From NCBI GenBank assembly GCA_963764165.1, contig CAVXRD010000003.1:352001-416000 (forward strand): a DNA stretch of 64,000 nucleotides, in the 5' to 3' direction. Every line of letters begins with the position of its first letter. The stretch's first letter is position 1. The notes below the pieces were generated by a model. The model did no database searches. It was given only the letters and a program-made list of their open reading frames with translations, and had not been told where the DNA came from. The position numbers and the translations under genes were made by a program. This stretch comes from an uncultured Verrucomicrobiae bacterium (GTDB lineage: Bacteria; Verrucomicrobiota; Verrucomicrobiia; Limisphaerales; Palsa-1400). Positions 3,001 to 18,885 of this stretch are shown here, piece after piece.

Positions 3001-5009
3001 CCGGTTTTGAAGTCGAATCCATCAGCGGCGCTTCGCTGAGCCAATGGACGGAATCGAAATCCGGCGCGGATCGAATCATCACGCTGCATTTGCTCGGCAA
3101 GACCACCGGCGCGCAATCGTTCGCGCTGAGTTTGGCGGGCGCGGGCGTCAAGACGGCGCACGGCTGGACCGCGCCGCAAATTGTGATTCGCGAAGCCGCC
3201 AAACAACAGGGAACTTACATGATCGTGCCCGAACAGGGCATGCGCCTGCAAACCACCATCCGCGAAGGCTGCACGCAACTGGATCCGCAAAAGTCTGGCA
3301 TCCGCCAGCGCGGAGTGCTGGCCTTCCGCATTCTGCAAGCGCCGTCCAGGCTTGTTATTGACATCGACCAGGTCGATGCGTGGGTGCAAGTCACCGGCTG
3401 GCAGCACGCCGACATCAGCCAGGCGCAAATCAAGGTCAGCGCCAGCTTCCAATACCAGATTGAAAACACGGGACTGAAATCGTTCCGCCTGCGCCTGCCG
3501 ACGGAAGCGCAAGGCGTCCGCTTCCAAGGCGAACAGGTTGGCGATTTCCTTCAGGAACCCGGCCCGGCGACGAATGGCCTTCAGACGTGGGAAGTGAAAT
3601 TGCGCCGCCGCGTGATGGGGCCATTCCTGCTGCAATTGAATTACGAAATTCCGCTGACCTCGCAAACGGCATCGCTGTCCGTGCGGGGCATCGAAGCGCA
3701 GGACGTGAATTCGCAGCGCGGATTTGTCACGGTGCAATCCGACCCCCGCATTGAAGTGAGCGTGGACGCGGTGCCTGCCGCTTTGCAGCCGGCGGAGTGG
3801 CAAAGCATCCCGCGCGAGTTGAAACGCGATCTCCCCACCGCCGCCGCCAGCCTCGCCTACCGCCTGGTCGAACCTGGATTTCAACTGCCGTTGAAACTTG
3901 TGCGGCACGAAGCGGCGAAATTGCTGCCAGCCAGAGTCAACTATATTGAATTGAGCTCGGCCGTCGCCGATGACGGCGTCATGCTGACCCAGGCCCGGCT
4001 GGAGATTGTGCCGGGCGACAAGCGGCTGCTGAGTTTGAGCCTGCCGCCGACCGCGCGCTTTTGGTTTGCGTTCGTCAACGACAGCGGCGTCTGGCCCTGG
4101 CGCGATTCCACCAACGTGCTCATTCCGCTGGAGCAGCAATCCGCCGGGAACAAGCCGGCCACGGTCGAAATTTATTACAGTTGCCAGGCGGGGTCGGCTT
4201 CGGAAAGCGCGTTGAACATGGATCTCGCCGCGCCGAAATTTGATCTGCCGCTGGAAAACATCACGTGGCATGTCTCGCTCGGGCAAAAGTGGCATGTGCA
4301 GAGCAGCTCGGGAGCGCTGCAATTGGAGCGCGCCGAGACTGAGGCGGCGGCGGACCCCGCGAGCACGCAAGCGTATCTGGCCAACGAAACGAATCTCCGC
4401 AAAGCCCGCACCGCGGAAGCCGAGCAATTTCTCGCGCTCGGAAATAATTCGCTGCAAACCGGCGATCCGCAACAGGCCCGCCGCGCGTTCCAGGCGGCCT
4501 ACGGATTGTCGAGGGACGACGCCGCGTTCAACGAGGACGCGCGGGTGCAATTGCACAACGTCAAATTGCAGGAGGCCCTGATCGGTTTCAACGCGCGGCA
4601 ATCAAGCGTCTCCGGCGACGCTGGAGCGCTGGGCGGAAAATTCCGCGCACTGCGCGGCAATGCGGCGCTCAATTACACGCAGCAGGACGCCAAAGACATT
4701 CTTGACAACAATTCCGCCGACGACAACGCGGCCTTCATGCGCCAATCAGAGAAGCTGGTGCAGCAGCAGGACGCCGCCGTGACAACTCCCGCCGCCATTC
4801 GCGCGAACATCCCCCAGCAAGGCCAGCGCCTGACCTTTCGCCGCTCGGTGGCGGTGGATTCGTGGGCGAGCCTGAATGTCAGCGTTGAAACGGTGCTGGA
4901 GCGGCATGGTACCATCGCGGGGCGCGCGGTTATTTTGGGAGGCGTGCTCATTTTCTTTGCCATCATGGCCGCGTTCGAATCCGGCCTGCTCCGCCCGGCT
5001 CGCTCGTGA
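1..5009 (+). CDS. Large hypothetical membrane protein, 5'-truncated by the window edge (>1663 aa)
   Basis: The frame is open from position 3 to the TGA ending at 5009. Beta-rich modules recur (GFAGLAADAGFRL / GTYMIVPEQGMRL / GFVTVQSDPRIEV). A hydrophobic helix cluster lies at about 1550-1860, with a TPR-like helical segment and a TM helix at the C-terminus. Confidence 0.85.
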   Translation, partial: DAEIELDIREAPLRELLLRVPRGFAVARLNAPSLSDSDYALSGPADSAQTDLRLTFGQPLTGRQLIQLRLERNQGAGETNWSLPRIDVAKAATVRGFAGLAADAGFRLTTDRSQGLTEMAPAFFPGKLPGIQSSFRLTDPNWSAVVKVERLPQTVQASVLHLFSIGEGIAYGSSVINYVISGAPVSSFRIELSNDCANVEFTGKDIRGWQTNAGGYVVQLHTPVSGAYTLLATYERPFKAQGDQVEFVGARPLDAQSEQGYTLVTSAYQFQVKPEEVSPALLPLEPAEVPPEYRLFTDAPLLAAYRYGSRPFNLRLSLSPLAQGDSLKQVVDRALLETHISKEGQAVTSIRYFIKNRGRPDFRLTVPKSAQLWSALVNGVAATPVVDGPASLIPLPQSADPNAVLELDLKMAAAAAQPELVHIEAPVTDAPVMLAEWKLEPDTGRRLVYQTGSVSPDGGTVDVSGFAQLARLWHGKSWADSRAIQPSNITLLAPVQQAGSPLKITVQNVPVKEAATAWIGWIWPAGIAVVAWIAGLLSGAVMKFLCRAAAWTLLAWAALRTPNGAGAFIWVLVACAAIHGLWPLSRRLRHWKPLAPGAPATAALLAFGIFCLTQSSAFGDSANPDSVTQTVRVEDRFALGSAKIHWQAEKGQSLSLVSSNAVLTAAHFPVEALELVSATGKDRIVAKKTGAWDIDVRYEAALTTNQGQIGFSLPTPSGLVNRLELTVAGRDVDAASPDSVSTQCEYVSSNTTARFVLKPGPAWIGWKPRSRDAAKEKAVFYAEISPVYVPSAGVVEGIHAVVIRPAQGEVGELLLRVPAGATVTDVSGAGESKTVVSVWRFDPDTRQLRVNLNPPQSRSFTLSVRTRQAVGPFPIEQSIGLLGVENAASQIGLAGLATGSDVQLDSATAPAFSPINLEDFPSDAVAALQPEIPGLTLRRAFRYTNSAAAISIKASAVEPDVRVETQDTLSLGEDRTVLADNVTLDIRRAGIFDWSFALPAGFEVESISGASLSQWTESKSGADRIITLHLLGKTTGAQSFALSLAGAGVKTAHGWTAPQIVIREAAKQQGTYMIVPEQGMRLQTTIREGCTQLDPQKSGIRQRGVLAFRILQAPSRLVIDIDQVDAWVQVTGWQHADISQAQIKVSASFQYQIENTGLKSFRLRLPTEAQGVRFQGEQVGDFLQEPGPATNGLQTWEVKLRRRVMGPFLLQLNYEIPLTSQTASLSVRGIEAQDVNSQRGFVTVQSDPRIEVSVDAVPAALQPAEWQSIPRELKRDLPTAAASLAYRLVEPGFQLPLKLVRHEAAKLLPARVNYIELSSAVADDGVMLTQARLEIVPGDKRLLSLSLPPTARFWFAFVNDSGVWPWRDSTNVLIPLEQQSAGNKPATVEIYYSCQAGSASESALNMDLAAPKFDLPLENITWHVSLGQKWHVQSSSGALQLERAETEAAADPASTQAYLANETNLRKARTAEAEQFLALGNNSLQTGDPQQARRAFQAAYGLSRDDAAFNEDARVQLHNVKLQEALIGFNARQSSVSGDAGALGGKFRALRGNAALNYTQQDAKDILDNNSADDNAAFMRQSEKLVQQQDAAVTTPAAIRANIPQQGQRLTFRRSVAVDSWASLNVSVETVLERHGTIAGRAVILGGVLIFFAIMAAFESGLLRPARS

Positions 5010-5011
5010 GC

Positions 5012-5100
5012 GGGGAGCGCGATTGTCTCGGCGGCGGTTTTCGGCGTCTCGCCGAAAACTCTTGCAGCAAAGACTGGCTGGCGGGACGGTCGCGCTCCCC
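5012..5100 (+). repeat. Palindromic intergenic element between convergent genes; possible terminator or mRNA stabiliser
   Basis: GGGGAGCGCGATTGTCTCG (5012-5030) pairs with CGGGACGGTCGCGCTCCCC (5082-5100); all mismatches are G-U on the + strand. Inner hairpin GTTTTCGGCG-TCT-CGCCGAAAAC at 5037-5059. Confidence 0.7.
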
Positions 5101-5111
5101 AAAACCGTTAT

Positions 5112-6110
5112 TTACACCTGCGGTGGAGTCGTTGGCGCCGCAGTATCTTCGGCGGCCTTATACTGCATCCGCGTCAAGGTGGAAAAGGCGTTCGGATGCC
5201 GGAGGTCGGCGTTGAATTCCGCGACGTGGTGGCGCTGCTTGGGATTGAAACCCCGATCAAGAATATACTTTGTCAATTCCTTGAACTCAGGCGTTTGTTT
5301 GACATCCGTCGACATAGCGTGAGGCTCGAGCGGAATATCCATGACAATCCTTGAACCCTCCTGCTGATCGGGCGGAAGGTCTGAAGTCCAGAATTGGGAT
5401 AAGACCACGACGCGCGTGCCAAGAAAAACCGCTTCCTCCAAATTGTGGGTCACGAAAATGACGGTCTTCTTGTAGCGCTCCCACAATTTCAGGATGAAGA
5501 TCTGCAAGTCTTCGCGCGTGCTGGCGTCCAGCGCGCCGTAGGATTCGTCCATGCAGATCAAGTCCGGCATTCCGAACAGGTCAATCGTAATGAGCGTCTG
5601 CGCGATGGCAACGCGCTGGCGCATGCCGCCGGATAATTCGGTCGGGTACTTGTCGCCGGCGTCGGAAAGGCGCATGTCGTCCAGATATTTGCGCGCCATG
5701 TCCCGCGCCTGCTTCCACCAGCTTCGCGAAAAGCGCTGGAGAATGCCCGCTTGAAACTCAAGGCCGAGAAGAATATTCCTCAGCACTGTCAAATGCGGGG
5801 CAATTCCGTAATTTTGAAAGACCACCCCCCGCGTGCGATCGGGAAATGACGGCAATTTCCCCAGCACCTCGAAGTGCTCAGCCCGCTGCACAATTTCCTG
5901 GCCAGTGAACAGTTTAAGCAAAGTCGATTTGCCGCAGCCGGAAGGCCCGACGAGCGAAACAAATTCGCCGCGGCTGACAATCAAATCGATATCGTTGAGA
6001 ACGGTTTTCACACGGCCATTGGCCGCGTCGTAATAGCCATGATAGGCATCCTCAAGATGGATGGCTTCGTTCCCTGTCAGCGCCGGTTTTGGTCTCGGAA
6101 TAAAATCCAT
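5112..6110 (-). CDS. ABC transporter ATP-binding protein (TauB/NitT type)
   Basis: Walker A GPSGCGKS, signature LSGGMRQR, Walker B ICMDE, H-loop VTHN. Confidence 0.95.
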   Translation of the reverse strand: MDFIPRPKPALTGNEAIHLEDAYHGYYDAANGRVKTVLNDIDLIVSRGEFVSLVGPSGCGKSTLLKLFTGQEIVQRAEHFEVLGKLPSFPDRTRGVVFQNYGIAPHLTVLRNILLGLEFQAGILQRFSRSWWKQARDMARKYLDDMRLSDAGDKYPTELSGGMRQRVAIAQTLITIDLFGMPDLICMDESYGALDASTREDLQIFILKLWERYKKTVIFVTHNLEEAVFLGTRVVVLSQFWTSDLPPDQQEGSRIVMDIPLEPHAMSTDVKQTPEFKELTKYILDRGFNPKQRHHVAEFNADLRHPNAFSTLTRMQYKAAEDTAAPTTPPQV

Positions 6111-6114
6111 GATC

Positions 6115-6963
6115 TTAATCCTCGTTTGTGGTGTACCACCTGAACCACGGGAGCTTCAGCACGCCCTGCAAAATCAGATCGCTGGCATAGGCAAGCAAAG
6201 AAATGTAAATGACGTAAGGAATGATCAAGGCCATGTTCATGTATCGCTGCTGGAGATAGATTCGATAACCCAATCCTTCCGTGGCGGCGACGGCCTCCGC
6301 CGCAATGACGAAAATCCACGCGGCTCCGAGAGACACGCGAATCAAGTCGATCAAACGCGGCAGCATTTGCGGAGCGATTATCTTGTAGAGAACCTGGAAC
6401 TGGGTCGCTCCCAGCGTGAGCGCCTTGACGGTCAATTCATGCGGCATGCGCTCCGTCAGACCGGCGATGGTCCGCATCATGGGAATGCCAATGCCGAAGG
6501 CAATCAGGAACACTTTGGAATTCTCCCCCACTCCGAGCGCGACCAGCACGATCACCAAAACCGCGAGAGGATTGACGTTGGATAATCCAGTCACCAATGG
6601 CGACAGCAAAGCGCGAAATCCCGGAAACATTCCCATGGCGATTCCAATAAAATAACTCGCCACCGCGGCGATGCCGATGCCAATTCCGAGACGCTTCAAG
6701 CTGGCCTTGGTGTCTTCGACGAAGAGATTTTTGCCCGAGCGCCGATCTGGCACCGTGATAATGGTCTTCATTGCGTTGTACATTTGACGCACGGAAGGCA
6801 TCAGCTTGTCATCGGGATTTTTCAAGGCCCGGGCGTGGGAAACAAACATGTAGAGCCCGAGCAGCGCGGCCACCGGCAGCAGCCCAAGAAATCGCCCGAA
6901 GACCATGCCGGGCCGGGCGTGCAGGCCCCAAAACAGAGGAATTCTATGTTTCCGTTGTGTCAT
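6115..6963 (-). CDS. ABC transporter permease (TauC/SsuC type)
   Basis: Multiple TM helices, EAA-like KALTLGAT and WIFVIAAE..GLGY motifs. The ATG at 6963 is preferred to the track start at 7002. Confidence 0.93.
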   Translation of the reverse strand: MTQRKHRIPLFWGLHARPGMVFGRFLGLLPVAALLGLYMFVSHARALKNPDDKLMPSVRQMYNAMKTIITVPDRRSGKNLFVEDTKASLKRLGIGIGIAAVASYFIGIAMGMFPGFRALLSPLVTGLSNVNPLAVLVIVLVALGVGENSKVFLIAFGIGIPMMRTIAGLTERMPHELTVKALTLGATQFQVLYKIIAPQMLPRLIDLIRVSLGAAWIFVIAAEAVAATEGLGYRIYLQQRYMNMALIIPYVIYISLLAYASDLILQGVLKLPWFRWYTTNED

Positions 6964-7047
6964 GCTGCGTCGTCTGAATTCATGGACTGCAAATCGGTAC
7001 ACGTTGCGGGGCGGTGGTCAATTCGCATAAGAATCACGAGCAAACCC

Positions 7048-7118
7048 CGGTAGGGCGAGGCTCCTGCCGAGCCATTCCCCGGCACGGAAGGCGGCTCGGC
7101 AGGAGCCTCGCCCTACCG
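7048..7118. repeat. GTAG-type REP doublet (family A)
   Basis: Perfect 26-bp inverted pair CGGTAGGGCGAGGCTCCTGCCGAGCC at 7048-7073 and 7093-7118. An identical unit occurs at 63950-63975. Confidence 0.9.
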
Positions 7119-7141
7119 AGCCTTATCAAGTTCGCTAGCGC

Positions 7142-8221
7142 CTACAGTTTTCCGCCAGCCGCAGCTTTTACGAATTCGCTGGTGTAATGGATTTTCACGT
7201 TTTTGGGATCGCCGATTATTTTTCCGCCCGGCAATTGAATGCCAATGAAATCAGGCGATTGCGCCCCCTGCCCCAAAAGTCCGTGGTCGAAACAGAATTT
7301 GGTGACTGTTTTCGCTGTGCTCTCAAGGGCCGGGCTTTCGATGAAAGCGATTCCGTCTTGCGGGGTGTAGAACATCTTCGTGGTTCGCAATTGCGCTTTG
7401 AATTCAGGCACTGTGCCGCCAGCGAACTTGGCCATGGCCTCAATCGCTTGATCGGCCTGCTTGCCCTGCCCTGACATGACGGCCATCGCTTCATACCACG
7501 CGCCGACCAGAGCCTTCTTGACAGCGGCGGGCGCATCGCGGCGCACAACCATCAGATCCTGGATTTCGCCGGGTATTTTTGAGGAGTCAAATATAAGTGT
7601 CGCTTTCGGGAGATTGCGCACCTGCATGAGAATGGGATTCCACGTCACGGTGGCTCCCTTATCTCCAGCGGTCGCGAAGGTGGCGCCGATGTTGGCGTCG
7701 GAAGTATTCACTTCGGTGACGTCGCCATCGTGCAACCCTCCGGCCTTCAGCGCCTGCGAGAGCAGATAGGACGAGACGGAATCTTTGACAATCAGGACCT
7801 GGCGGCCTTTGACGTCCTTGATGGTTTTGCCGTTGAAGAGGACCAAACCGTCATTGCCGTCCGAGTAATCTCCCACCACGAGCACATCGGAATCCACGCC
7901 GCCGGTGGCCGGCATATCGAGCGTATCCATGATGGTCATCGCGCAGCCCGCAGCCGCGCCGGACGTGTACTGATTGATGCTGGTGACGTAGTCGTTGATC
8001 AAAACGATTTCAACTTTGACCTTATACTTGTCAGCCCATTTCTTCATGATCCCGGAGTCGGCGATGTATTGCCATGGCTCCCATCCGGTGTAATGCGACC
8101 AGAGATAGCGATAGGGTTTGTCTGAATCATCTTCCCGCGCGACGGCCTTGAACGGAAGCAAAGTCCCGCATAACACGGCGGCAAGCGCGATTCCTGTTTT
8201 CCACATTTTCATATTTTGCAT
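7142..8221 (-). CDS. ABC substrate-binding protein, 'putative urea ABC transporter' (urea carboxylase/guanidine-associated) family
   Basis: Signal peptide; family-like motifs WSHYTGWEPW, GIMKKWADKY, VGDYSDGNDG, VTWNP, SKIPGEIQDL. Confidence 0.85.
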   Translation of the reverse strand: MQNMKMWKTGIALAAVLCGTLLPFKAVAREDDSDKPYRYLWSHYTGWEPWQYIADSGIMKKWADKYKVKVEIVLINDYVTSINQYTSGAAAGCAMTIMDTLDMPATGGVDSDVLVVGDYSDGNDGLVLFNGKTIKDVKGRQVLIVKDSVSSYLLSQALKAGGLHDGDVTEVNTSDANIGATFATAGDKGATVTWNPILMQVRNLPKATLIFDSSKIPGEIQDLMVVRRDAPAAVKKALVGAWYEAMAVMSGQGKQADQAIEAMAKFAGGTVPEFKAQLRTTKMFYTPQDGIAFIESPALESTAKTVTKFCFDHGLLGQGAQSPDFIGIQLPGGKIIGDPKNVKIHYTSEFVKAAAGGKL

Positions 8222-8240
8222 TTCCTTTTTTGTATTCGAA

Positions 8241-9530
8241 TTAAGTGTTTTTCTTGCCTGTGGCAGAGAGATCCTGATCGAGATTCAGTGTCACGGCGGC
8301 TTTGTTGCCGCGTTCCATTCTGGCGATGGCTTCTTCGCCCATCGCGGTAAGATTATTCCGTTCTTTAATGGCGGCGCCCATTTGCTCAATGGCACGAGTG
8401 CGGAATGTATCCACATCATCCAGCGCCTTGATGGCGTCCTTCATGGCTTGCGCCAAACCGGCATCGGAAAGCTGGGCGGACGCCGCTTGTTTGTGAATTT
8501 CAATGCCCTGGGTGGCGAGAAGCTTCGCGTTGAAGGCAATCGTCCGATTGCCCACGTCGTCGAGGGCTTGAATCTTGGTCAACACTATCTTCTGGTTGGC
8601 CAGCGCCTGCGCGGCGGTGATGCCGATGAGCAAGGCGGGATACGTCACGTTTTTGCAACGGATGACGCCGCGGATGAGTTCCTTGTTGTTCTGAATGAGC
8701 ACCTCAAACATCAGCACTCCCTGCTGGTTCACCACCAATTGCTGCTGCAAATCGGTGATGCGCTGGCGCAGGCGATAAATCAGCTTCGTGTTGATATACT
8801 TTGCCTGGTCGCTTTGCGGCTCGAACTTCGCCACTTCGGCCGCCAGCTTCTCGTCAATCAACTGGCAGGTCGCGATGTAACGCGTGAGGTCGCGCGTGGC
8901 CTGGCGCATGGTGACTTGCTCGTCGCGCAGCGTGTCGATGTCGCGCTGGAGCTGCTGCTTGCTGAGTTCGACTGAATCGAAAAGCGCTTCGATCACTTTC
9001 CCGGAAGCCTCGAACTTTGTGAAATACTTGTTCAACTTGTGGCCAACGCCGGGAATCATGCTGGCGACTCGTCCCGCCCAGCCGGCTTCGAAGTTAAACC
9101 GGGACGGGTCAATTTCGTCGAACTGGACTTTCAAGTTCGTAAGAGCGTCAGCAATCCCCTGCCCTTCGCCCCCGCCGATCTGGCCGAGTCGCTTGAGCGG
9201 CTGCTTGAGAAGTTCATTGGCGACGGCGGCTTTGCGCTGCTGGATGACGCCGAGATTCTCGACGGAAAGCGCGGCCTGCTCCTGAGCATCTTCGTTTTCG
9301 ACCGGCACCTTCAAGAGTTTGCCGACGAATTCAGTGGCCTGCCGGTCAAGCTCGGGATCCACTTTTTTTTGCACGACCGCCTTGGTGATTTCATCCGGCC
9401 CAAGCAGGCCGAGGTCGTTTTTTATTTTGCCCGGGTCAGCCACCTGTGGCGCTGCTTCCCTAAGGGCGGATTGCTGTTGTCCCAGCATTTCCAGATTCTG
9501 CGTGGGGGCCGCGAGTATTTGTTCTGACAT
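8241..9530 (-). CDS. telA: Toxic anion resistance protein (TelA/KlaA family)
   Basis: All-helical coiled-coil protein with TelA-like segments (LNKYFTKFE, LRQRITDLQQQLVV, LIQNNKELI, LATQGIEIHKQA). Confidence 0.85.
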   Translation of the reverse strand: MSEQILAAPTQNLEMLGQQQSALREAAPQVADPGKIKNDLGLLGPDEITKAVVQKKVDPELDRQATEFVGKLLKVPVENEDAQEQAALSVENLGVIQQRKAAVANELLKQPLKRLGQIGGGEGQGIADALTNLKVQFDEIDPSRFNFEAGWAGRVASMIPGVGHKLNKYFTKFEASGKVIEALFDSVELSKQQLQRDIDTLRDEQVTMRQATRDLTRYIATCQLIDEKLAAEVAKFEPQSDQAKYINTKLIYRLRQRITDLQQQLVVNQQGVLMFEVLIQNNKELIRGVIRCKNVTYPALLIGITAAQALANQKIVLTKIQALDDVGNRTIAFNAKLLATQGIEIHKQAASAQLSDAGLAQAMKDAIKALDDVDTFRTRAIEQMGAAIKERNNLTAMGEEAIARMERGNKAAVTLNLDQDLSATGKKNT

Positions 9531-9551
9531 ATATTTTTCCTCTCGTTAGTT

Positions 9552-10415
9552 TTATTTTTTAAGATCCTGTTCCAGCGAAATCGCCGGAGTTTGCCTGCTG
9601 TTTGCCCTGACTATCATTTGATTCAGCAAATCCATGGCTTCGGCCATCATCTCCCGTGGCGTCTGCGAAGCAGACCTGTCTTTCATTCGGACGGCGGCGT
9701 TGCCCGCCTTGTCCATCGTGGCTAGCGCCTCTTCATTCGCCGCCAGAAGCTCTTCGACTTCCTGCGCGGTTTGATCGTAAACGCCAGCCTGGTCCTTCAA
9801 TGCCTTGAGGCTCGTCTCGTCGGCGTGTGTCCGCGCGGGCTTCTGATCCAACGCCGTGACGCGTCCTTGAATTTCCGCGCGATTCATGTCTTTGACATTG
9901 AGAAGCAGCGTGACCACGCGATCGAGATTGTCCAGGCCAGAACGGTAGACTTGCTCCGCCGTTCCCATGACGCGCGAGAAGGTCAATTCGCTTTCCGAAA
10001 GCACTCTGCGGAACACGGCCAGCAGGTTTTGAAATTTTTCTTCGAATTGCTTTACCTGGATTTCTCCCTGCTGGCATCCGAGTTTCTTGAGATCGGCTGA
10101 CAACTCCGCTGACTTTTGCTTTTTTAGCCTTTCAAATTCGTCGTGCATCCTCGCGTAATGTTCCTGCATATAGGCTTCGCCTCTGCCGAGAAAACGGTAG
10201 GCCAGATGAGCCGCCCCCAACACCACCCCGCCCGTGGCAATGGCCACCGTGGCGGGCGCGGAAACAACCGAGAACAAACCCAGTCCGAAAGCCGTCACCG
10301 CGCCGAGCGCCGGAGGCCAGAGAGTCAGCGGATGCTGGATGGTGTCGAGAAAGGCCGTGCGTCGCGCGGCCTTCTCGCTGAAATCCATCTGCGGGCTGCC
10401 TGTGTCAACCTTCAT
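9552..10415 (-). CDS. Membrane-anchored coiled-coil protein (XpaC-like TelA partner)
   Basis: Two N-terminal hydrophobic helices followed by a long helical region; directly upstream of telA, the position XpaC-like genes usually take. Confidence 0.7.
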   Translation of the reverse strand: MKVDTGSPQMDFSEKAARRTAFLDTIQHPLTLWPPALGAVTAFGLGLFSVVSAPATVAIATGGVVLGAAHLAYRFLGRGEAYMQEHYARMHDEFERLKKQKSAELSADLKKLGCQQGEIQVKQFEEKFQNLLAVFRRVLSESELTFSRVMGTAEQVYRSGLDNLDRVVTLLLNVKDMNRAEIQGRVTALDQKPARTHADETSLKALKDQAGVYDQTAQEVEELLAANEEALATMDKAGNAAVRMKDRSASQTPREMMAEAMDLLNQMIVRANSRQTPAISLEQDLKK

Positions 10416-10430
10416 GGTGGCTCGTTTAAT

Positions 10431-12092
10431 TTACAACTGCGCTTGCGTGAGCTTTTTCACGCCGCGAACGCTATCGGCGAAATCATGCGTGAAATCACGC
10501 AGCGCCTCCGCGTGGTCCGAGGCAAAACTCTGGCGATAAACGCTTTCAACTCCGGCGATCACATCCTCAGGCCGCACGCCTTCAGTTGGCACGGGCTTTG
10601 AAAGCTCTCGCTCCAACGCCAGCCGTTTAGCTTCTTCCACAATGACCGGAATCATCGCCCCGCTGACAATATTCTCCAGCGTAAAACGGACGGTCGTGTT
10701 CGCGCCCGCCGCTCCTTCGCGCTCGATTTCGTAAATGACACGTTTCGCGGAAAACAGCTCCTCGGCGAAGATGTCTCCCAGCTTTTCGAGCGTCACCGTT
10801 TCCGAAACAGGAACATTCTTCATGTTCTTCAAAAAAATTTCGCGAGCGGCTTTTCGATCTGGACGGCTGATGCGCAATTTCACATCGATGCGGCCCTCCC
10901 GCACGGCGGCATAATCCAAAGACTCCGGCTTGTTGGTCGCCAATATAACCAAAGCGCCCGATTGGCGCACGCCCTGCATTTCCGCGAGGAAGGCGGGAAC
11001 GATTGTGCGCAACACGTCGCTGCTGATGCCGGAATCGCGCTTCGCGAGAATAGATTCGGCCTCGTCCAAAAATATGACCGGACGAATGCCGGTCTTCTCG
11101 AAAAACTTGCGCGCTCGGGCAAAAAGATGCCGGATGGTGGCTTCTGGAACTCCGACATATTTGTCCAAAATCTCGGGCCCGGAAACCAGGATGAAACCCT
11201 GTGATGCTTTTGCTCCTTTGGCGCTGCAGGTTGCGGTAATGGACGTATAGATGGCTTTTCCAAACATGGTCTTGCTGCATCCCGGCGGACCATAAAGCAA
11301 AACGCCCGACGGCGGTTTTTTCCCGAAAAACTTGTAATGCTCCGGATGCAGCATCGGTTTTTCCAAGGCATCCATGAAGCGGTTCTTCGCTTCTTCCTGG
11401 CCGCAAATGTCGTCCCACGAAACTTGAGTGGCCTCGTCAACCGAGAACGAATCATCCTCGAGGCCGAAGTTCCCGACGATCACCGTCGCGCTGGCATCGA
11501 GCACCACTCTGCCGCTGGGTTCGAGTTTGCCGGCGAATTTCCCGGCATAGACTGTCTTCCGGTTGCCTTGAAAATCCACCAATGCCATATCGCCGTCGAG
11601 CGCCTGGGCTACGAACGCAATGCTGCCGGAGGCGGCTCCCTTCTCGACGTCCACCACCGAAAGCGGGTCGCGCGAGAGTTTGAGATGGTCGCCCGGCTCG
11701 ACGGAAAATCCGTCAACCAAAAACTCCAAGAGCTGGCCGCCATAAATGGCAACGGCCAGTTTCTCCAATTCCTCGCCAGCCAATTCCAAATCGCAAGCGC
11801 CATCTTGGATGCCGGGCAAGCCAATCCGATAACGGTTCTTGTAGCCACCCGGAAATAAAACATAAGCCCATCCCGGCTCGTCCTGCTTTGCGCCGATGAC
11901 TTCGCCCGTCCCGCTCGCTTCGGGATTCAAGCCGAAATACTTGCTGTCCTTTCGAACCTTGACCAAGGTCCCCTTGCATCCCAGCCGGTCAGGCGACGGA
12001 AGCGGTTTGCGCGTCAACACTCGGATGACGGTCGCAAGGCCAAGCGGATAAATGGTCTTTGCCGCGCCCAATTCAGATGGAGTTGTTGTCAT
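10431..12092 (-). CDS. ARC/Mpa-like (proteasome-type) AAA+ ATPase, 553 aa
   Basis: VSWDDICG..KPPSGVLLYGPPGCSKT, GPEILDKYVG pore loop, IFLDE Walker B, RDSGISSDV, REGRIDVK and SGAMI, all ARC-like. Start ATG at 12092 has a GGAG Shine-Dalgarno; the track start at 12251 overlaps the upstream gene. Confidence 0.88.
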   Translation of the reverse strand: MTTTPSELGAAKTIYPLGLATVIRVLTRKPLPSPDRLGCKGTLVKVRKDSKYFGLNPEASGTGEVIGAKQDEPGWAYVLFPGGYKNRYRIGLPGIQDGACDLELAGEELEKLAVAIYGGQLLEFLVDGFSVEPGDHLKLSRDPLSVVDVEKGAASGSIAFVAQALDGDMALVDFQGNRKTVYAGKFAGKLEPSGRVVLDASATVIVGNFGLEDDSFSVDEATQVSWDDICGQEEAKNRFMDALEKPMLHPEHYKFFGKKPPSGVLLYGPPGCSKTMFGKAIYTSITATCSAKGAKASQGFILVSGPEILDKYVGVPEATIRHLFARARKFFEKTGIRPVIFLDEAESILAKRDSGISSDVLRTIVPAFLAEMQGVRQSGALVILATNKPESLDYAAVREGRIDVKLRISRPDRKAAREIFLKNMKNVPVSETVTLEKLGDIFAEELFSAKRVIYEIEREGAAGANTTVRFTLENIVSGAMIPVIVEEAKRLALERELSKPVPTEGVRPEDVIAGVESVYRQSFASDHAEALRDFTHDFADSVRGVKKLTQAQL

Positions 12093-12108
12093 GGTTTCTC
12101 CTATCCCG

Positions 12109-13698
12109 TCAAAATGTCTCCGAGAGCAGCGATACCTCAACGCGCGGCAAACGATAGGTTTGGTAGGCGCGCTCACTTTCGCCGGGCAGCATTGGCAGCG
12201 GCCTGGTTCCGCCGTAGCCGACCGAACGAATTCGATTTGTGTCAATCGCATATGTGATCGTTAGATATCGAACGACCGCATCGGCGCGTTCCTGCGAGAG
12301 CGCAAGGTTTGCATCAGCGTCGCCGAGAAAAGAGGTGTGGCCTTCGACCAGAATTCGAAATGTCGGATAATGCTTGAGGCGCGAAACCATCGCATCGAGC
12401 TTTTCCTTCTCCGAAACCTCAAGCTCGCCGACCCCGCTTTGAAATAGGATGGGTTCGATATTCAGGCTGCCCACCGAATGCAATTTCGCCCACTGCGCAT
12501 CGGTCAGCGGCTTGAACGGTTTGCTCAGGCCATCGCCGCCTTCCATCGCCTTTGACGCAGTGCCTGTCAGCGCGGAAAAACCGTTCCGGATGCCGGTATT
12601 GTAGATTTGCTGAACGAAACTGCTGTTCACGATTCGGTATGGATCTTTGTCGGGTAGCGGATCCGATTTGAAATCCCCGCTCTGAACCAAAATCTCAACA
12701 GTTGACTGAATCGTGTCAATCAACCCCTGCTCCGCCATCTGGCCCGGCCCGCTGATTCCAAACCACTCCTGGCAATTCTCGCTCAGATTGGCCCAAGCCA
12801 CGCCGTTCAACATCTTCTTCACCGAGTCGGCGGGCAGTTTCAGTTCGGAGTGAATGTCCTTCTCAAGCTCGTCGGAATTGTCCGCGTAGAATTTCAGCGT
12901 CCGAAAGTAGGTTTTCAAAAACAAATCCACTTTTTCAGGATTCTTAAGCGCGAATTGGCGGTTGACCACGAGAATGTCCACAATCAGACGGCTGGTGCTT
13001 TCTGTTCCCAGGATTTTGACCACGCCCGGAATTTCAAGAGCCTTCGATACGTTGGGTTCCCAGAGAATCGCGACTGAGACCTTTTTCTCCTGCAGAAACT
13101 TGAGCGCTTCCTGCGAATCCTTTGTCTCGATTCGCTTGTTGGCGCTGATCTCCTTCAATCCTGGAACATTGAAATGCGAACTGATGGATTTCAAAAGATG
13201 CTGGCTGGGCGAAGCCGGAGTGTAAGCGATCTTCGGCATTGTGTGGCTGTCGAAGGTCTTGAACGACTCAAGGCTGGAAACAACATTGCTGTAGGCGACC
13301 ATCGCATCGCCGCCTTTGGATTCATCCACGATGGCCACAATTGTTCCGGGAAAATCAACCGGCGCGGCGTTGAGGATGTAAGAATCGACCGTTACCACGG
13401 CAAAATCCAAATCGCCATCCCGCAGCTTCTTCATCCGCGCGGGATAATCGCCGCCGTCGTTGGAAATATCGAGGCGATAGCCCTCGTTGCGCATCGCCTT
13501 TTTCATGCGGCCAGAACTGAGCGGGTAATATCCAATCCAGTCGTCAATCGCGACGGTTACTTTCCCTTTCAGATCCTTGTCATCGCTGGTTTGGATCTGC
13601 ATGCGGTTCTTCAAGACCGGGATCATCTTCTTGGCCACGTACAAGCCGGGGAGAATGAGCACCAGAAACAGAAGAACGAGAATGGGCGTTTTTTTCAT
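12109..13698 (-). CDS. Periplasmic binding protein (NMT1/PBP-II) fused to a C-terminal OmpA-like peptidoglycan-binding domain
   Basis: N-terminal TM anchor; DDWIGY, DESKGGDA and WEP motifs; OmpA motif ILVEGHT..NLALSQERADAVVRYL..GYG. Confidence 0.88.
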   Translation of the reverse strand: MKKTPILVLLFLVLILPGLYVAKKMIPVLKNRMQIQTSDDKDLKGKVTVAIDDWIGYYPLSSGRMKKAMRNEGYRLDISNDGGDYPARMKKLRDGDLDFAVVTVDSYILNAAPVDFPGTIVAIVDESKGGDAMVAYSNVVSSLESFKTFDSHTMPKIAYTPASPSQHLLKSISSHFNVPGLKEISANKRIETKDSQEALKFLQEKKVSVAILWEPNVSKALEIPGVVKILGTESTSRLIVDILVVNRQFALKNPEKVDLFLKTYFRTLKFYADNSDELEKDIHSELKLPADSVKKMLNGVAWANLSENCQEWFGISGPGQMAEQGLIDTIQSTVEILVQSGDFKSDPLPDKDPYRIVNSSFVQQIYNTGIRNGFSALTGTASKAMEGGDGLSKPFKPLTDAQWAKLHSVGSLNIEPILFQSGVGELEVSEKEKLDAMVSRLKHYPTFRILVEGHTSFLGDADANLALSQERADAVVRYLTITYAIDTNRIRSVGYGGTRPLPMLPGESERAYQTYRLPRVEVSLLSETF

Positions 13699-13716
13699 GT
13701 TGATCCTCGCGTCAGA

Positions 13717-14628
13717 TCAGCCGGCAATCTCCATATCAAAGCCAAGAATGCTTCGATGGCCATAATCAGGCGGGACTGCCGGATTTTCACGAATTTGAGT
13801 GACGTAGTGCCAGAGGCCCTTGTCCGATTGAAAAATCCCCTCCCCTTCCGCCAAGGTGCGGCGGACGTATTCCGTCTTCTTGTCTGGACCGTAAACGATG
13901 CTTTCTCCCCCGAGAATTCCCGCGCGCTCGATCACGAGGGCGGACACAATATAATCGGCGCCATCCTGGTGAATTCCCTCGGGCGCGTTATCGCCGCCGG
14001 AAAGAATGTCTGCAAAGATGAACATTTGATGGACGCTCATGCGCAGCTTTGCGCAACTGGGGTGGCGCTCGCGAACCATCTCGGCAAAGCATCCCATCAA
14101 ATGGCGCACTTGTGGATGCTCAGCGACCATCGCTTCCATTTCGTGAAAGACGCGCACAAGGCGTCGCGGATCATTCGCCCCGACGTTTTGTTGGTATTGC
14201 GCCGCCGGAACGCGCTCAAAACTCCACTTGCCCGCCGCCCGCATCAGATTGAAGCGAGCCACGGAGCGCTTGCGCCGACCGGTCATGCCGATACGGTCCA
14301 GTTCATTGCGATCCGTGTCGTCTAGTTGTTTTACTAGATCGTAGATGGCCGCAAGGTCTTCCTTGTTTGAATAATAATTGCGCAGAAATTCGCTGAGCCG
14401 ATCCGATTGCTCAGGAAATCGCTTTTTGAGAAGTTCTACTTTCGCCCGTTTCGCATCGTAAGGATCGAGATGCAATACGGAAAAAGTCGGGCGCATGTCG
14501 CACAAAAAGCTTTCCCGATCCACTCCAAACGTCTCGAGCGAGAAAACCCGCACCGGCGGAATTTCCGTCCCGAATTTTCGGGATAGCTCGGTTTCGTTGA
14601 TGATGAATTTGTTCACGGTGGCTTTCAA
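13717..14628 (-). CDS. 2OG-Fe(II) dioxygenase family protein (2OG-Fe_Oxy_2-like)
   Basis: APEGIHQDGADY (HxD), distal His in LWHYVT and the 2OG-binding Arg in HRSILG. TTG start overlaps the vWA stop (TTGA). Confidence 0.85.
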   Translation of the reverse strand: MKATVNKFIINETELSRKFGTEIPPVRVFSLETFGVDRESFLCDMRPTFSVLHLDPYDAKRAKVELLKKRFPEQSDRLSEFLRNYYSNKEDLAAIYDLVKQLDDTDRNELDRIGMTGRRKRSVARFNLMRAAGKWSFERVPAAQYQQNVGANDPRRLVRVFHEMEAMVAEHPQVRHLMGCFAEMVRERHPSCAKLRMSVHQMFIFADILSGGDNAPEGIHQDGADYIVSALVIERAGILGGESIVYGPDKKTEYVRRTLAEGEGIFQSDKGLWHYVTQIRENPAVPPDYGHRSILGFDMEIAG

Positions 14629-15401
14629 TGCGCGTCCGGTTTGGCGCTGAACTCCGATTCAGCCAGGACGCTTTCAAGCCCCTGGTTGAGCTCCTGAAGG
14701 CTGGTGGCGTCGTGGTAAAGCGTCAGCCCGGGCCGGTTTAAGCTGTGGCCTTCGCCGATGCAGAAGCCAATCGTGCTGATCAACACCGGCGAATCGGAGA
14801 CGATCTTATTGACAATCTCGCGAGGATCGTCTCCCCGGTCAGCCTCGCCATCGGTCACAATCACCAGATAATATTCGCCGTAACCAAGCTGGCGCCTGGC
14901 CTGTTTTTGCAGAAGCGAATAGCCCAGCTTCACAGCCCTGCCCAGCGGCGTGTTGCTGTCCGAACGAACCGCCTGCAACGCTTGATTGAAAGCAGCGCGA
15001 TTAAGCGAAAGCGGCGCGCGTTCCGTCACACCCGCGCTGTCAAAGGCGCACAGCCCCAAGTTGTCGTCCGGCCTGATTTTGGTGGCGAAGGAGGCAATGG
15101 CCTGCTTGGCCGCCACGATCTTTGACAAATTCCCGGAACAATGGGACTCCGACATGGAGCCGGATCCGTCAAGCACAATCAGGAAGTTGCGGCGAGTCAG
15201 CAGCGCATCCAGGTCTTTCGCGGGGTCGCTTCCGTACCACGAGCGATTGTTGAAACCGCGAACCTCTTTCGGATCATCCAATACGGTCGTGACAATTTGC
15301 GGCCGCGGCGCGGACGGCGATCGATGGGGCCGCTGATTTCTCATGGAAATGTAGACCGCGACCAGAATGAAAACGAAAATGAGCCTTGCGAAAAATTTCA
15401 T
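14625..15401 (-). CDS. Membrane-anchored von Willebrand factor A (vWA) domain protein
   Basis: Intact MIDAS: LDGSGSM..NTPLG..IVTDG; N-terminal TM helix. ATG at 15401 overlaps the upstream stop (ATGA). Confidence 0.9.
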   Translation of the reverse strand: MKFFARLIFVFILVAVYISMRNQRPHRSPSAPRPQIVTTVLDDPKEVRGFNNRSWYGSDPAKDLDALLTRRNFLIVLDGSGSMSESHCSGNLSKIVAAKQAIASFATKIRPDDNLGLCAFDSAGVTERAPLSLNRAAFNQALQAVRSDSNTPLGRAVKLGYSLLQKQARRQLGYGEYYLVIVTDGEADRGDDPREIVNKIVSDSPVLISTIGFCIGEGHSLNRPGLTLYHDATSLQELNQGLESVLAESEFSAKPDAH

Positions 15402-17140
15402 TTGGCACCTCCATCCGGGGTCCACACTGATTCCGCCTCAACGTTGACGATGCGAAGTTCGCATCGCATGTTCGAATAAGCCGCCTCTTTGCTGGTGGGC
15501 CGGATTGGCTCGCCATCCGATGTCGTGCCGGTCTTGGGATCACTTATGCCGTGGCCCATCGTCGTGAACTGCGACGGGTCCAGCGCCACGCCTTTGGATT
15601 TGGCATAGTTGACAATCGCTTCCCGCACTTGCACCGCGCGATTCAGCGATGTGTTGTTGGCGGATTGCTTGATGCGCGAAAGAACCAGGGTGGGCTGCCC
15701 CTTGCTCTTGGCATCGCAGTATCCTGTCGGATCCGCGTAGCCTTCCACCGTGATGATCGCGCCGGCATAGATGGCAGCGCGCTTGATTACCTCGTCGAAT
15801 TGCGTGGCATAGGCCTCAGGGGCAAAGGTCGCCTGGTTCGGCTTGAAAAAGACCTCGAATTCGAAGAGTTGATTGTCCTTGAGAGTGCCTTGCTCGGAAC
15901 GCTGCGCCATGACTTTCGCCACTTCGCCGCTCTGAAATTTTGGAACCTCGCTGGCTACGATCTGCGTCAAACCCGATTTCAACGCATCGTAATCCAATCC
16001 CGCGGTATCCACCGCGACCTTCGATCCAATAAGCCCCAGGCCCACCAGCCCGCCCTGAATCTCATCCTGCAGGACAGCGAAACGGCGCGGAAATGTTGGG
16101 CTGGTGAACGTGTTGACGTTTCCAACAAAGCCGACGTATTCGCAATCCCCATAAAGGCCTTTCGCGTCCGCGACAGCCTGCGGGCTGTCAAGCAGAATGG
16201 TGGCAGCGGCGGTCATCAATTTGTTGTAATCCGCTTTTTGCGTCACGCTGTCGCGCATGAGCACCGCCAGTTTTTCCTGCGCCATGAGCAGGGCGTGCGC
16301 GAAGTTGATCACTTCAGCCTTGTGGGCCTGGAAGTAATCGCTGCGAACCGCGTAGACGTCGACAATAATGCGGCTGGCCGTTTTTGTTGACATCAAAATA
16401 TGCGCGCCTTTCACTGATTTTTCCGCGCCCGTTCCAACGCCGCTGTTGCTGGTGATCTCGGCCGCGTCGGGGCTGATCATGAACGCCGCGTCCACTGATG
16501 GGTCGGTGCGCATCGCGCCAGCCGGCGTGTCGTCCGTTCCGGTGAGATCCTTGACCCACTTAATCTTGACGTCGGTCAGCGCGATATTGGCGTCCGCCAG
16601 CACGCGGGTCAAATAATCCACATGCGGGCCGTAAGCCTGCAAAACGATGGTCTTTCCTTTGAGATCAGCCGGGGTCTTGATGCTGGATTTGACCACCAGC
16701 ACGTCGCCTCCAACCGAATAGGTAAGCTGCCCGATAACCACCGGTTTCACGCGCGGATCCTGCAGGGCTTCGATGGCCTGGTTCAACATGCCAAGCGTGC
16801 ATCGAAGATAGGCGGAATCACCGCGAATATAGGCCGCGATTTGCTTGGTGAAGTCATCCTCACGCTTGAGGCTGAACTTCAACCCTTGCGCGTCGAAGAC
16901 GCTGCCACTGGCCGTGTTCACCGCGCTGCCGTTGGCCAGGATGGTGGCAATGTCCCCGCCCCACGTAATGATGGGAAGCTGCATCGCGCCGCCTTCGCGC
17001 ACCGGCACGACCCCCTGCTTGATGACCTTCGCGAGCGGAGGCGAGTCGATGTATTTTACAGTTGCCGCCAGAGCCGAGAAGGCAGCCAAGCTGGGGAAGA
17101 TCACCGCAATCGCCAAGCTTGTCAGGGATTTTGTTTTCAT
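15398..17140 (-). CDS. ABC-type substrate-binding protein (NMT1-like) with C-terminal OmpA-like domain
   Basis: Signal peptide MKTKSL..ALA; TYSVGGDVLVVK..DLKGKTI; OmpA-like VFFKPNQ..ITVEGYAD..SLNRAVQVREAI..GHG. Confidence 0.85.
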   Translation of the reverse strand: MKTKSLTSLAIAVIFPSLAAFSALAATVKYIDSPPLAKVIKQGVVPVREGGAMQLPIITWGGDIATILANGSAVNTASGSVFDAQGLKFSLKREDDFTKQIAAYIRGDSAYLRCTLGMLNQAIEALQDPRVKPVVIGQLTYSVGGDVLVVKSSIKTPADLKGKTIVLQAYGPHVDYLTRVLADANIALTDVKIKWVKDLTGTDDTPAGAMRTDPSVDAAFMISPDAAEITSNSGVGTGAEKSVKGAHILMSTKTASRIIVDVYAVRSDYFQAHKAEVINFAHALLMAQEKLAVLMRDSVTQKADYNKLMTAAATILLDSPQAVADAKGLYGDCEYVGFVGNVNTFTSPTFPRRFAVLQDEIQGGLVGLGLIGSKVAVDTAGLDYDALKSGLTQIVASEVPKFQSGEVAKVMAQRSEQGTLKDNQLFEFEVFFKPNQATFAPEAYATQFDEVIKRAAIYAGAIITVEGYADPTGYCDAKSKGQPTLVLSRIKQSANNTSLNRAVQVREAIVNYAKSKGVALDPSQFTTMGHGISDPKTGTTSDGEPIRPTSKEAAYSNMRCELRIVNVEAESVWTPDGGAK

Positions 17141-17259
17141 AATAAATGCAATTCCGTTTGGACTGGAGTTTTCTCCAATCGCGCCCGGTTTCATCCCCGG
17201 GCATCCTGCCATTGTATACCGTCCGCTCCGAATCTACCTGAATTGACGGGCGGGGCAGC

Positions 17260-17294
17260 TACAAAACGCACACCTGTTTTGTAATGGGTGTGCG
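17260..17294. promoter_or_regulatory. Candidate operator upstream of the TelA operon
   Basis: Perfect inverted repeat TACAAAAC-N8-GTTTTGTA (17260-17283) interlocked with CGCACACC/GGTGTGCG (17267-17294). A minus-strand TACAAT -10-like hexamer lies at about 17211-17216. Confidence 0.4.
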
Positions 17295-17435
17295 GCAGAA
17301 TTCTTCACCAGCCCCGATCTGCTGGGCTAAGAGGAAAGGCCAGAGGCCTGGTTTATGAAGTTTTGGGGGAATTCCGCCTGCTTGCGGCAATGCAAAATCG
17401 GCGGCTAAAACTCGTTTCCTCAAATAGGGCGAGTT

Positions 17436-18329
17436 CTAGTTTTTTGAGCCGCTGGCGAGGAGCCGCTGCAACTGCCGCGCGTTCTTAATCGCATGCGCCT
17501 CGCGGTCGTTATTGAAATACGCCCATACGCGCCTTGCGCCGCTTTCTTTTATTCTTCTGGCCCACTCAGCAAGCTCCTCACGCGCATAATCATGCCGATA
17601 CCAGCGTTTGGATCCGTGAAAGCGGACATAAATGTCATCGGCGGTTTTGACAAGAGCGCTTGGAAGCCTGGGTGCGCTGCACGAACAGAAAATGGTGCCT
17701 GTTTTTCTGAAAGTGGCATAAACCTTTTTGTTCCACCAGCTTGGATCGCGAAATTCAACAACGTTCCGCCGTGAATGGTCCAATTGGCCGGCAATCAATT
17801 TGAGACGGGCCGGTGTATAATGAAAGCTCGGCGGAAGTTGGAAAAGAAAGCAGCCCAAATGCGAACCGAGAATCTCGGCAATATATCCGAAATCGCGTAT
17901 GAGCACCCTGGTTCCACGGAACTTTTTCACATGGGTGATGAGTTCGCATACTTTGACTGTGTAAACGAACTTTTTTCTTCCAATTTGTTTTATCCAGGAT
18001 TTGACAGTGGCCACTGTCGGCCAGGAATAAAATGGAGCGTTTAATTCCACTGTCTTAAATCGGCTTGCGTAATATTTGAACCATTGACTGACGGGCGCTT
18101 GGCTGGGATAAAAAGCGCCTCGCCAGTGCCAGTAAAACCAACCCGAACAGCCTACGTGGCATTGCCTCTTGGAAAAATCGCGCGCCGCAGATTCCACTCT
18201 CAGCCCGGAATATTCGGACGATATCCGCGCATGGTGCATCTTTGCGGCGCGGCCGGCATTTTGCTGCCGTTGCTTTTCCCGCCGGGCTTCCCGTTTTGCC
18301 CTCCACTCTGTCAGGGATTTATCTTTCAA
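17436..18329 (-). CDS. DUF72 domain-containing protein
   Basis: VGCSGW.Y.HW.G.FYP, TVELNAPFY, LFQLPPSF, VEFR..SW, YVRFHG and YFNND motifs. Confidence 0.93.
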   Translation of the reverse strand: MKDKSLTEWRAKREARREKQRQQNAGRAAKMHHARISSEYSGLRVESAARDFSKRQCHVGCSGWFYWHWRGAFYPSQAPVSQWFKYYASRFKTVELNAPFYSWPTVATVKSWIKQIGRKKFVYTVKVCELITHVKKFRGTRVLIRDFGYIAEILGSHLGCFLFQLPPSFHYTPARLKLIAGQLDHSRRNVVEFRDPSWWNKKVYATFRKTGTIFCSCSAPRLPSALVKTADDIYVRFHGSKRWYRHDYAREELAEWARRIKESGARRVWAYFNNDREAHAIKNARQLQRLLASGSKN

Positions 18330-18850
18330 GGGTTCCCCAAGATGCCTGCCAAAGCCGCGCGCGGCGATGGGGCCTTTTCCCAGTTTTGACGCGGATACCT
18401 TTCATTTAGCCTACGGTGATGGCCCTATTGGCATTCCGACTGGGTTGAGGACAAGGTGTGCTAATGCCACGCGTCTCAAAATAATCATGACAAGCGCGCC
18501 GCCATAAACCCATTATGTCCAAACACGCTATTATCGGCCTTGATATTGGGGGAACCAAAACTTTTGCGGTGCTCTTCGATGACAAATTCGCGGTGGTCGA
18601 CAAGCGCCGGTTTAAAACTGAGCCAGGCAGCGGCGACCGGGTTTTTGAGAGACGGCTCTCGCGGGCAATCGCGGAATTGGTGGAAACAGCGGCGGCGCGG
18701 AAAATGCGGGTCGGCGCCGCGGGAATTGGCTGCTCTGGCAGCGTTGATTTTGATTCGACCGAATTGCAGATTTCCCCTCACATCCCGTTCCTCAAAAATT
18801 TCAATCTGGCTCAAAAAATGCAGAAGTGGACTAGGGCCTGTTAACACTAA

Positions 18851-18879
18851 TTGACATTTTATAGGCGACAAGGCAAAAT
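18851..18879 (+). promoter_or_regulatory. Putative sigma70 promoter of the transposase
   Basis: TTGACA-N17-CAAAAT directly inside the left inverted repeat. Confidence 0.55.
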
Positions 18880-18885
18880 GGCTGG

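Follow-up and report, generated by a model that had tools for sequence, protein, structure and literature searches.

A 64,000-nucleotide stretch of DNA (the window) from the genome of an uncultured Verrucomicrobiae bacterium, contig CAVXRD010000003.1, carries a ten-gene operon at positions 5112 to 17140. We propose that this operon is an envelope module containing a TelA family protein, to which a Pup-free unfoldase with the fold of the proteasomal ATPase ARC/Mpa has been added. The predicted role of the ATPase is to strip away or reuse TelA and a membrane-anchored helical partner at the inner membrane. We give this reading a probability of roughly one half. It builds on the gene content of the operon and on the fold, motifs, missing N-terminal coil, inserted domain, separate origin and gene linkage of the ATPase.

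All ten open reading frames (ORFs) lie on the minus strand, running from 17140 to 5112 in the order described by a first-pass annotation of the same DNA. With the starts chosen here, the intergenic gaps in transcription order are -4, -4, 18, 16, 15, 21, 19, 178 and 4 nt. These recalculated gaps bear out the earlier view of a co-oriented block joined by overlaps or short gaps. The features are:

15398..17140, minus strand: binding protein (NMT1/SsuA fold) with a C-terminal OmpA-like peptidoglycan-binding domain (OmpA fusion 1); 580 aa, N-terminal hydrophobic signal
14625..15401, minus strand: vWA protein (VWA_2); 258 aa, N-terminal membrane anchor, intact metal-ion-dependent adhesion site (MIDAS), extracytoplasmic by prediction
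13717..14628, minus strand: 2-oxoglutarate- and iron-dependent (2OG-Fe) dioxygenase (PF10014, 2OG-Fe_Oxy_2); 303 aa, accessory
12109..13698, minus strand: second binding protein-OmpA fusion (OmpA fusion 2); 529 aa, N-terminal anchor, OmpA family match
10431..12092, minus strand: orphan ARC/Mpa-fold AAA+ ATPase; 553 aa, two OB barrels, AAA family match
11775..11981, minus strand: SH3-fold, MIB-HERC2-like domain inserted in the first OB barrel (OB1) of the ATPase, residues about 38-106
9552..10415, minus strand: membrane-anchored helical/coiled-coil protein (the coil protein); 287 aa, in the XpaC position before TelA
8241..9530, minus strand: TelA family protein; 429 aa, all-helical long bundle
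7142..8221, minus strand: ABC binding protein, TIGR03427; 359 aa, above the family cut-off
7049..7117, no strand: inverted repeat resembling repetitive extragenic palindromic (REP) sequences, with 25-nt arms, in the 178-nt gap
6115..6963, minus strand: ABC permease (SsuC/TauC type), BPD_transp_1; 282 aa, six hydrophobic segments
5112..6110, minus strand: ABC ATP-binding subunit (TauB/NtrD type), ABC_tran; 332 aa

The best curated family for the ATPase is the proteasome ATPase family TIGR03689, which it matches at 257 bits, below the cut-off of 504.75. The host's own ARC also falls below this cut-off (418 bits). A structural model of the ATPase, with a mean predicted local distance difference test (pLDDT) score of 89, finds its best fold matches in Mpa (E 1e-33; Z 29.1 over 435 residues). 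The fold comprises a double OB region, a single AAA module and a C-terminal beta-grasp-like, beta-rich domain as in Mpa. The structure matches support the ARC/Mpa-type assignment made from the letters alone. The motor motifs are intact and include Walker A (GPPGCSKT), Walker B (FLDEAE), the pore loop (KYVG), sensor I (N387) and the arginine fingers (R398/R401). Judged by these residues, the ATPase keeps the full motif set of an active AAA+ unfoldase. The start at 12092 follows an evident ribosome-binding site, and the resulting 553 residues equal the length of the closest homologs.

The host ARC is a separate protein of 583 residues encoded beside a Pup-ligase-family gene (G000:C2:1818674-1822008). 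A second Pup-ligase-family gene lies with proteasome subunits on another contig (G000:C4:52472-55600). The tag-proteasome system of the host, which we take to be the one named UBact, is therefore split over two contigs, and the host ARC ends without the usual Tyr motif. The possibility that the operon ATPase is a duplicate of this ARC was rejected, with a p value of 6e-55 for their joint grouping in the approximately unbiased test (p-AU). A quick tree built from 98 rows places the window ATPase in a 27-row clade (Shimodaira-Hasegawa-like approximate likelihood ratio test, SH-aLRT, 99) inside a broad orphan family that lies apart from the 23 canonical rows. The orphan family is large, with at least 150 representatives at 50% identity above 480 bits, and it is frequent on viral contigs. 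By sequence, the window ATPase is assigned to this orphan family of Patescibacteria and phages. All five taxon-named clusters of the clade outside the host family are Patescibacteria, and the ATPase was likely transferred from that group, as far as its sequence relationships indicate. A pairing of a MoxR-type chaperone with the vWA protein was also considered and rejected; the ATPase lies outside the MoxR clade, and the vWA protein is anchored at its N terminus.

Distant ARC-like ATPases are also encoded by Brevundimonas phages (H1, H2) and a Methylobacterium plasmid (H36). The two phage proteins are annotated as proteasome-associated, and the hosts of all three elements are not known for proteasomes. 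These elements are possible experimental handles on the orphan family.

Compared with canonical ARCs, the clade is shortened at its N terminus. The window ATPase has 15 residues before the first OB strand, and the model places no helix there. This segment measures 0-28 residues in the 27-row clade versus 45-124 residues in 22 of 23 canonical ARCs. In Mpa, Pup is recruited by the N-terminal coil (PMC8755798). The ATPase clade is without this Pup-binding coil. The window protein ends in QAQL, without the HbYX/GQYL docking motif, and a penultimate Tyr occurs in 0 of 259 family proteins. The ATPase likely works without Pup tags or a proteasome.

The tail is a weak functional indicator, because the host ARC and other UBact-type ARCs also lack a penultimate Tyr; among the canonical rows, 9 of 23 have Tyr or Phe there. 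Therefore, the tail is compatible with docking of the ATPase on the 20S particle of the host. An alternative is that the ATPase is a second proteasome activator that feeds envelope proteins to the UBact-type 20S of the host, choosing them by its insert and not by a tag. The host does have an ARC, two Pup-ligase-family genes and proteasome subunits, the relative G306 has the ligase family, and the C-terminal beta-rich domain of Mpa is kept in the ATPase. However, neither a Pup ligase nor a 20S/HslV subunit was found in the six other carrier genomes, namely five small ones and the Bacteroidota genome G304, all of which are incomplete assemblies. Moreover, the linkage of the ATPase to its neighbors is older than its entry into the host. 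A role as second activator is thus highly improbable.

Substrate choice without tags might depend on the OB1 insert. This segment of about 80 residues is absent from canonical ARCs and was detected in 105 of 259 family proteins. When a 9-row insert profile was compared with the PDB, the MIB-HERC2 domains of HECTD1 and MIB1 came first (3DKM, 2DK3, 4XI6; E 1e-4, 1e-3, 7e-3). The SH3-fold protein PsaE came next, and KOW also scored weakly. Several family members match Pfam MIB_HERC2 weakly (best E 1e-4; 13.5-22.5 bits), under the cut-off of 33.5. These domains are therefore the best PDB sequence matches of the insert, but it stays under the Pfam cut-off, and other SH3 folds score too; it may be a general SH3-fold relative rather than MIB-HERC2 proper. 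An Atlas search with the insert gave no usable match. The MIB-HERC2 domain of MIB1 binds peptides. Over the family, the insert varies between MIB-HERC2-like, KOW-like, tandem and absent forms (window 11775-11981, P0050, P0104, P0073, L185:10592-10750), a pattern that resembles an exchangeable substrate reader.

TelA is linked to resistance against membrane- and wall-active compounds by a mechanism that is not known. TelA and XpaC have been tied to membrane-stress phenotypes in Firmicutes, which place both proteins at the membrane under peptide stress (PMC6811118, PMC12791056). The window protein matches PF05816 at 172 bits (cut-off 30). Its model is a long helical bundle with a mean pLDDT of 62, and the fold matches (Z 8-11) are designed bundles, BAR domains and ClyA-type pore formers, which are not decisive. 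No solved structure related to TelA by sequence was found.

The coil protein has no Pfam family, and the XpaC family, searched among 25 listed families, was matched by 0 of 28 aligned members. It is called "XpaC-like" by its position before TelA and its membrane anchor alone. Among named Atlas clusters, Rv2743c/PspM comes nearest to it (0.88), a weak likeness of features that serves as a lead only. A profile comparison of the coil protein with a neighbor at L187 revealed no likeness. The block contains no PspA/Snf7 Pfam match, and no PspA (PF04012) was found in the host genome (7.0 Mb, 97% complete).

TelA (8241-8300) and the coil protein (9552-9590) end in similar tails. The shared C-terminal tail is present in 26 of 38 near homologs of the coil protein and 17 of 21 of TelA, versus 7 of 90 far TelAs; a terminal extension of TelA is present in 20 of 21 near and 0 of 90 far homologs. 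The tails are candidate docking motifs, but such a function is inseparable from common descent, and the G304 coil protein has no such tail.

The ATPase recurs next to such genes, as the first-pass annotation had expected of its homologs. Four of the 24 other genomes from the host family have it, and none of 16 from the host order does. In all four relatives it sits between OmpA fusion 2 and the coil protein, and the gene order is kept at 70-91% identity. The flanks of these relatives matched none of the five proteins that flank the operon in the window. A Patescibacteria record has the consecutive accessions MEK7641395/394/393 for ATPase, coil protein and TelA, which is the order in the window. 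Among distant coil-protein homologs on contigs of at least 7 kb, five of six have a longest contig of the same size as that of a clade ATPase, which is indirect evidence. In G304, the same core is spread over two contigs, and an orphan ATPase follows the ABC gene at the end of the operon. The G304 ATPase keeps its N-terminal coil and falls elsewhere in the ATPase tree. A single origin of the two ATPase-bearing operons is rejected by the ATPase tree (p-AU 0.020; 18 of 98 rows, with the clade taken from an earlier tree) and by a concatenated core tree of 7 rows (0.012). Therefore, the ATPase family was gained at least twice, or repeatedly lost and replaced.

The remaining genes form a core that also exists by itself. 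This core consists of the two binding-protein/OmpA fusions, the vWA protein, the coil protein, TelA, the binding protein, the permease and the ABC ATPase. A Vibrio plasmid carries all eight genes without the AAA and 2OG-Fe genes, and six such plasmid records match. A 545-kb viral contig (L189:5081-15673) has the eight genes in the same order as the window; additional small genes interrupt the series, and the range of the ABC match contains a stop. Seven core genes, with TelA missing, are present at L270, from the phylum of a Myxococcota record, and one more core (L269) is cut by a contig end. No close ATPase copy was found elsewhere in the records or genomes of L188, L189 and L270. The ATPase is dispensable for the core.

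The operon is a patchy, horizontally spread envelope module. TelA was found in none of 300 further genomes from the host phylum, or in 1 of 301 counting the host. OmpA fusion 2 was found in 0 of 251 and 0 of 5 sampled genomes, and the binding protein in 0 of 200 besides G304. OmpA fusion 1 was found in 0 of 240 besides G304 and in 3 of 121 in another sample; one of these three (L271) is a weak single match and not the operon. At E 1e-60/1e-55, the ATPase was found in 2 of 400 sampled genomes besides the center of the sample, and in 0 of 150 and 0 of 145 besides the centers. Annotated phages and plasmids contain no close ATPase, and viral contigs scanned with the ATPase N terminus gave no match. 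Recent transfer was considered and rejected, since the G+C content at third codon positions (GC3) of the ten genes is 0.61-0.72, which is typical of the genome; the gain of the operon is therefore old.

The occurrence of the core on a viral contig and on Vibrio plasmids, together with the patchy spread, also fits a role in defense or exclusion. TelA and its coil partner could build a regulated pore or barrier in the membrane that stops phage DNA from entering or acts against a competitor, and the ATPase would keep this structure disassembled until a trigger arrives. Seven ClyA-type pore formers are among the matches of the TelA model (Z 7.5-9.7), and TelA has been proposed as a sub-membrane barrier in jumbo phages (PMC7824862). 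However, helical bundles often give Z values below 13, and the scores of BAR domains and designed bundles are similar. PADLOC returned only generic matches on the operon (AAA, OmpA/MotB). We consider a defense role very unlikely.

Several results weigh against a TelA-directed function of the ATPase. Three cores (L188, L189 and L270) have no ATPase; because ATPase-free cores exist, the ATPase would be an optional upgrade. Of 17 clade ATPases on contigs of at least 7 kb, 11 have no size-matched coil or TelA homolog and six have one, although the 11 may reflect other contexts or the limits of a word-based search. The test that rejected a single origin on the ATPase tree used a clade from an earlier tree, and its p value of 0.02 is modest. 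ESCRT-III and PspA are not among the 50 fold matches listed for TelA, for which the model is of low confidence, and a profile comparison of TelA with the coil protein at L013 found no likeness. Further, a small neighborhood census covered 240 loci, of which 38 are orphan-type, with some rows near-duplicates and distant partners possibly missed. The commonest neighbor of orphan-type ATPases is DUF1360, found downstream in 14 of the 38 loci. A coil or envelope module occurs in only three (L012, L013, L014), and with the queries used it occurs in none of the 24 viral loci.

DUF1360 is a small two-segment membrane protein. The orphan ATPase precedes it at L011:3913-6359, L012:9737-12125, L185:8423-11023, L190, L192, L193, L198 and L204-L206. 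The ATPase-DUF1360 pair of Patescibacteria-like genomes and phages is possibly a two-gene system of its own; an open-access literature search for DUF1360 together with the ATPase listed one paper, which looks unrelated.

The prevalence of DUF1360 raises the possibility that the ATPase is a passenger, that is, a mobile gene that usually travels with DUF1360 and found its way into a stress operon. There it would unfold membrane proteins in general, with no specificity for TelA. The frequency of the family on viral contigs and the existence of ATPase-free cores are consistent with this explanation, and the operon gains and loses other genes as well (the 2OG-Fe gene, the inserts in L189, the missing TelA of L270). 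Yet the ATPase occupies the same slot in lineages that share only 52-57% identity in the coil protein, and the repeated gain, or loss and replacement, of the ATPase is not expected of a passenger. The loci with importer modules (window, L013, L014 and L186) lack DUF1360, as if the membrane partner had been swapped. This pattern suggests a membrane-side motor that changes partners. We therefore judge the passenger explanation to be rather unlikely. If it holds, what is left is an unstudied mobile envelope operon and an unannotated orphan ATPase family.

At L013 (divergent) and L186 (co-oriented), the ATPase is encoded beside a coil protein, a membrane-anchored coil protein, an OmpA fusion, a permease and an ABC ATPase. 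The membrane-anchored proteins of this module type have no Pfam family, and their Snf7-like label rests on published gene order. A sample of 105 other genomes from that phylum yielded no OmpA fusion of this module; the adjacency to the ATPase is therefore not due to chance. At L012, an orphan ATPase is encoded beside PspA.

Because the permease, ABC ATPase and binding proteins are constant in the window, L013, L014 and L186 while the helical proteins differ, the operon could instead be a high-affinity importer with wall-tethered scavengers. The ATPase would then assemble, extract or turn over the ABC transporter and its membrane partners. L270 has the importer without TelA, and the third binding protein scores above the TIGR03427 cut-off (435 bits versus 334). 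However, L012 combines PspA and the ATPase with no importer match, and in the lineage of the window the ATPase directly precedes the coil protein and TelA. Also, an Rfam scan of 4900-18500 found no riboswitch or other family that would point to a nutrient. A transport chaperone is an unlikely function for the ATPase.

Under the TelA-directed reading that we favor, the OmpA-tethered binding proteins, the vWA protein and the importer would import or detect a small solute at the wall and perhaps take part in signaling across the envelope. The coil protein would anchor TelA, which may assemble into a polymer under or in the membrane and stabilize it. The ATPase hexamer would contact TelA or its partner and choose its substrate by means of the inserted domain. 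It would then draw this substrate into its pore and so return the assembly to its starting state, in the manner of Vps4 acting on ESCRT-III. In this way, it would take apart or recycle the membrane-anchored helical proteins of the operon under envelope stress. If this is true, the motor family of proteasome ATPases has a new job.

A broader proposition, which we put forward tentatively, is that the orphan family as a whole consists of proteasome-free ARCs in which a swappable SH3/MIB-HERC2-like reader replaces Pup recognition. Such ATPases would have been recruited repeatedly as disassembly motors for TelA, PspA and membrane-anchored coils. In that case, bacteria would have a Vps4 built from a proteasome ATPase, and TelA would be a dynamic membrane polymer.

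The closest known systems are the operons of Ravi et al. 2024, which combine PspA or TM-Snf7, AAA+, PBPB-OmpA and ABC/permease genes and are discussed with a Vps4/ESCRT-III analogy (PMC11237479). These operons resemble the one in the window in that a PBPB-OmpA fusion, an ABC ATPase, a permease, a membrane-anchored helical protein and an AAA+ protein share one operon. These sister operons, with the same analogy, are a precedent for the combination, of which the first-pass annotation knew no description. However, the published systems have PspA/Snf7 helical proteins and a tandem AAA protein with an inactive first module, whereas the window has TelA, a coil protein in the XpaC position, a vWA protein and a single-module ARC-fold ATPase. 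The window operon is not a member of those systems, because it has no PspA/Snf7 and no tandem AAA. In the portions of the source that were available, the terms 'TelA' and 'proteasom' occur zero times in the supplement text, and 'proteasom' and 'vWA' occur zero times in the main text. The ESCRT-like idea is already published; the TelA form and the de-tagged ARC are the additions.

Two other comparisons are relevant. The ATPase shares with Mpa/ARC (TIGR03689; PDB 7PX9, 5KWA) the double OB region, AAA module, pore loop and C-terminal beta-rich domain. It differs by its score below the cut-off, the missing Pup-binding coil and GQYL/HbYX end, the OB1 insert, and the location of its gene away from Pup, ligase and 20S genes. 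The xpaC-telA (yaaN) pairs of Firmicutes and the Ter-associated TelA/vWA neighborhoods likewise have a membrane-anchored helical protein before TelA, a vWA neighbor and a link to envelope-active compounds. In contrast, the ten-gene block has no XpaC Pfam match and no ter genes, and it has two OmpA fusions, an importer and the ATPase in addition. TelA/vWA neighborhoods were reportedly described in the Ter-system study of Anantharaman et al. 2012. Searches of the open-access literature found no account of the combination of TelA with ARC or of the orphan ATPase family, although the 2012 study could list the core.

How bacterial membrane-repair polymers come apart without Vps4 is an open problem. 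Vps4-containing ESCRT systems have been treated as confined to archaea and eukaryotes (PMC11188069). The operon supplies candidates for the motor and for the domain that reads the substrate, and it exists naturally with and without the ATPase, which makes both this problem and the action of TelA testable. It also points to an ARC-fold ATPase family that lives without Pup or proteasome and to a domain in bacteria that is related to one of eukaryotic ubiquitin ligases.

Other genes of the operon agree with their first-pass family labels in family scans. The MIDAS residues of the vWA protein (D-x-S-x-S, T, D) and the H-x-D...H...R motifs of the 2OG-Fe dioxygenase were read directly, the former confirming that the site is intact as claimed. 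OmpA fusion 1 scores slightly below the cut-offs of both the OmpA and NMT1 families. The 2OG-Fe gene, which had been listed as part of the block, is indeed present here, but it is not a fixed member; it is absent from two (L182, L183) and present in one (L184) of the three relatives whose contigs cover the position, and absent from all distant cores seen.

Promoter and terminator scans of the operon region gave scores near chance. The 178-nt gap, earlier described as REP-containing, holds a perfect 25-nt inverted repeat at 7049-7073/7093-7117, and 0 of 100 shuffles reached three matches. Its arm has 96 copies in the genome at two or fewer mismatches. The element is a genome-wide REP-like repeat that landed inside the operon.

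An ORF of 1663 aa or longer (window 18-5009) converges on the end of the operon and has a weak TPR match only. On the other side, at window 18515-20341, what looks like a ROK-family gene is presumably split by an IS5-like transposase (18886-19643), judging by the translations. Farther along, at window 22070-45658 on the minus strand, an ORF of 7862 aa contains many repeated surface-protein-like segments.

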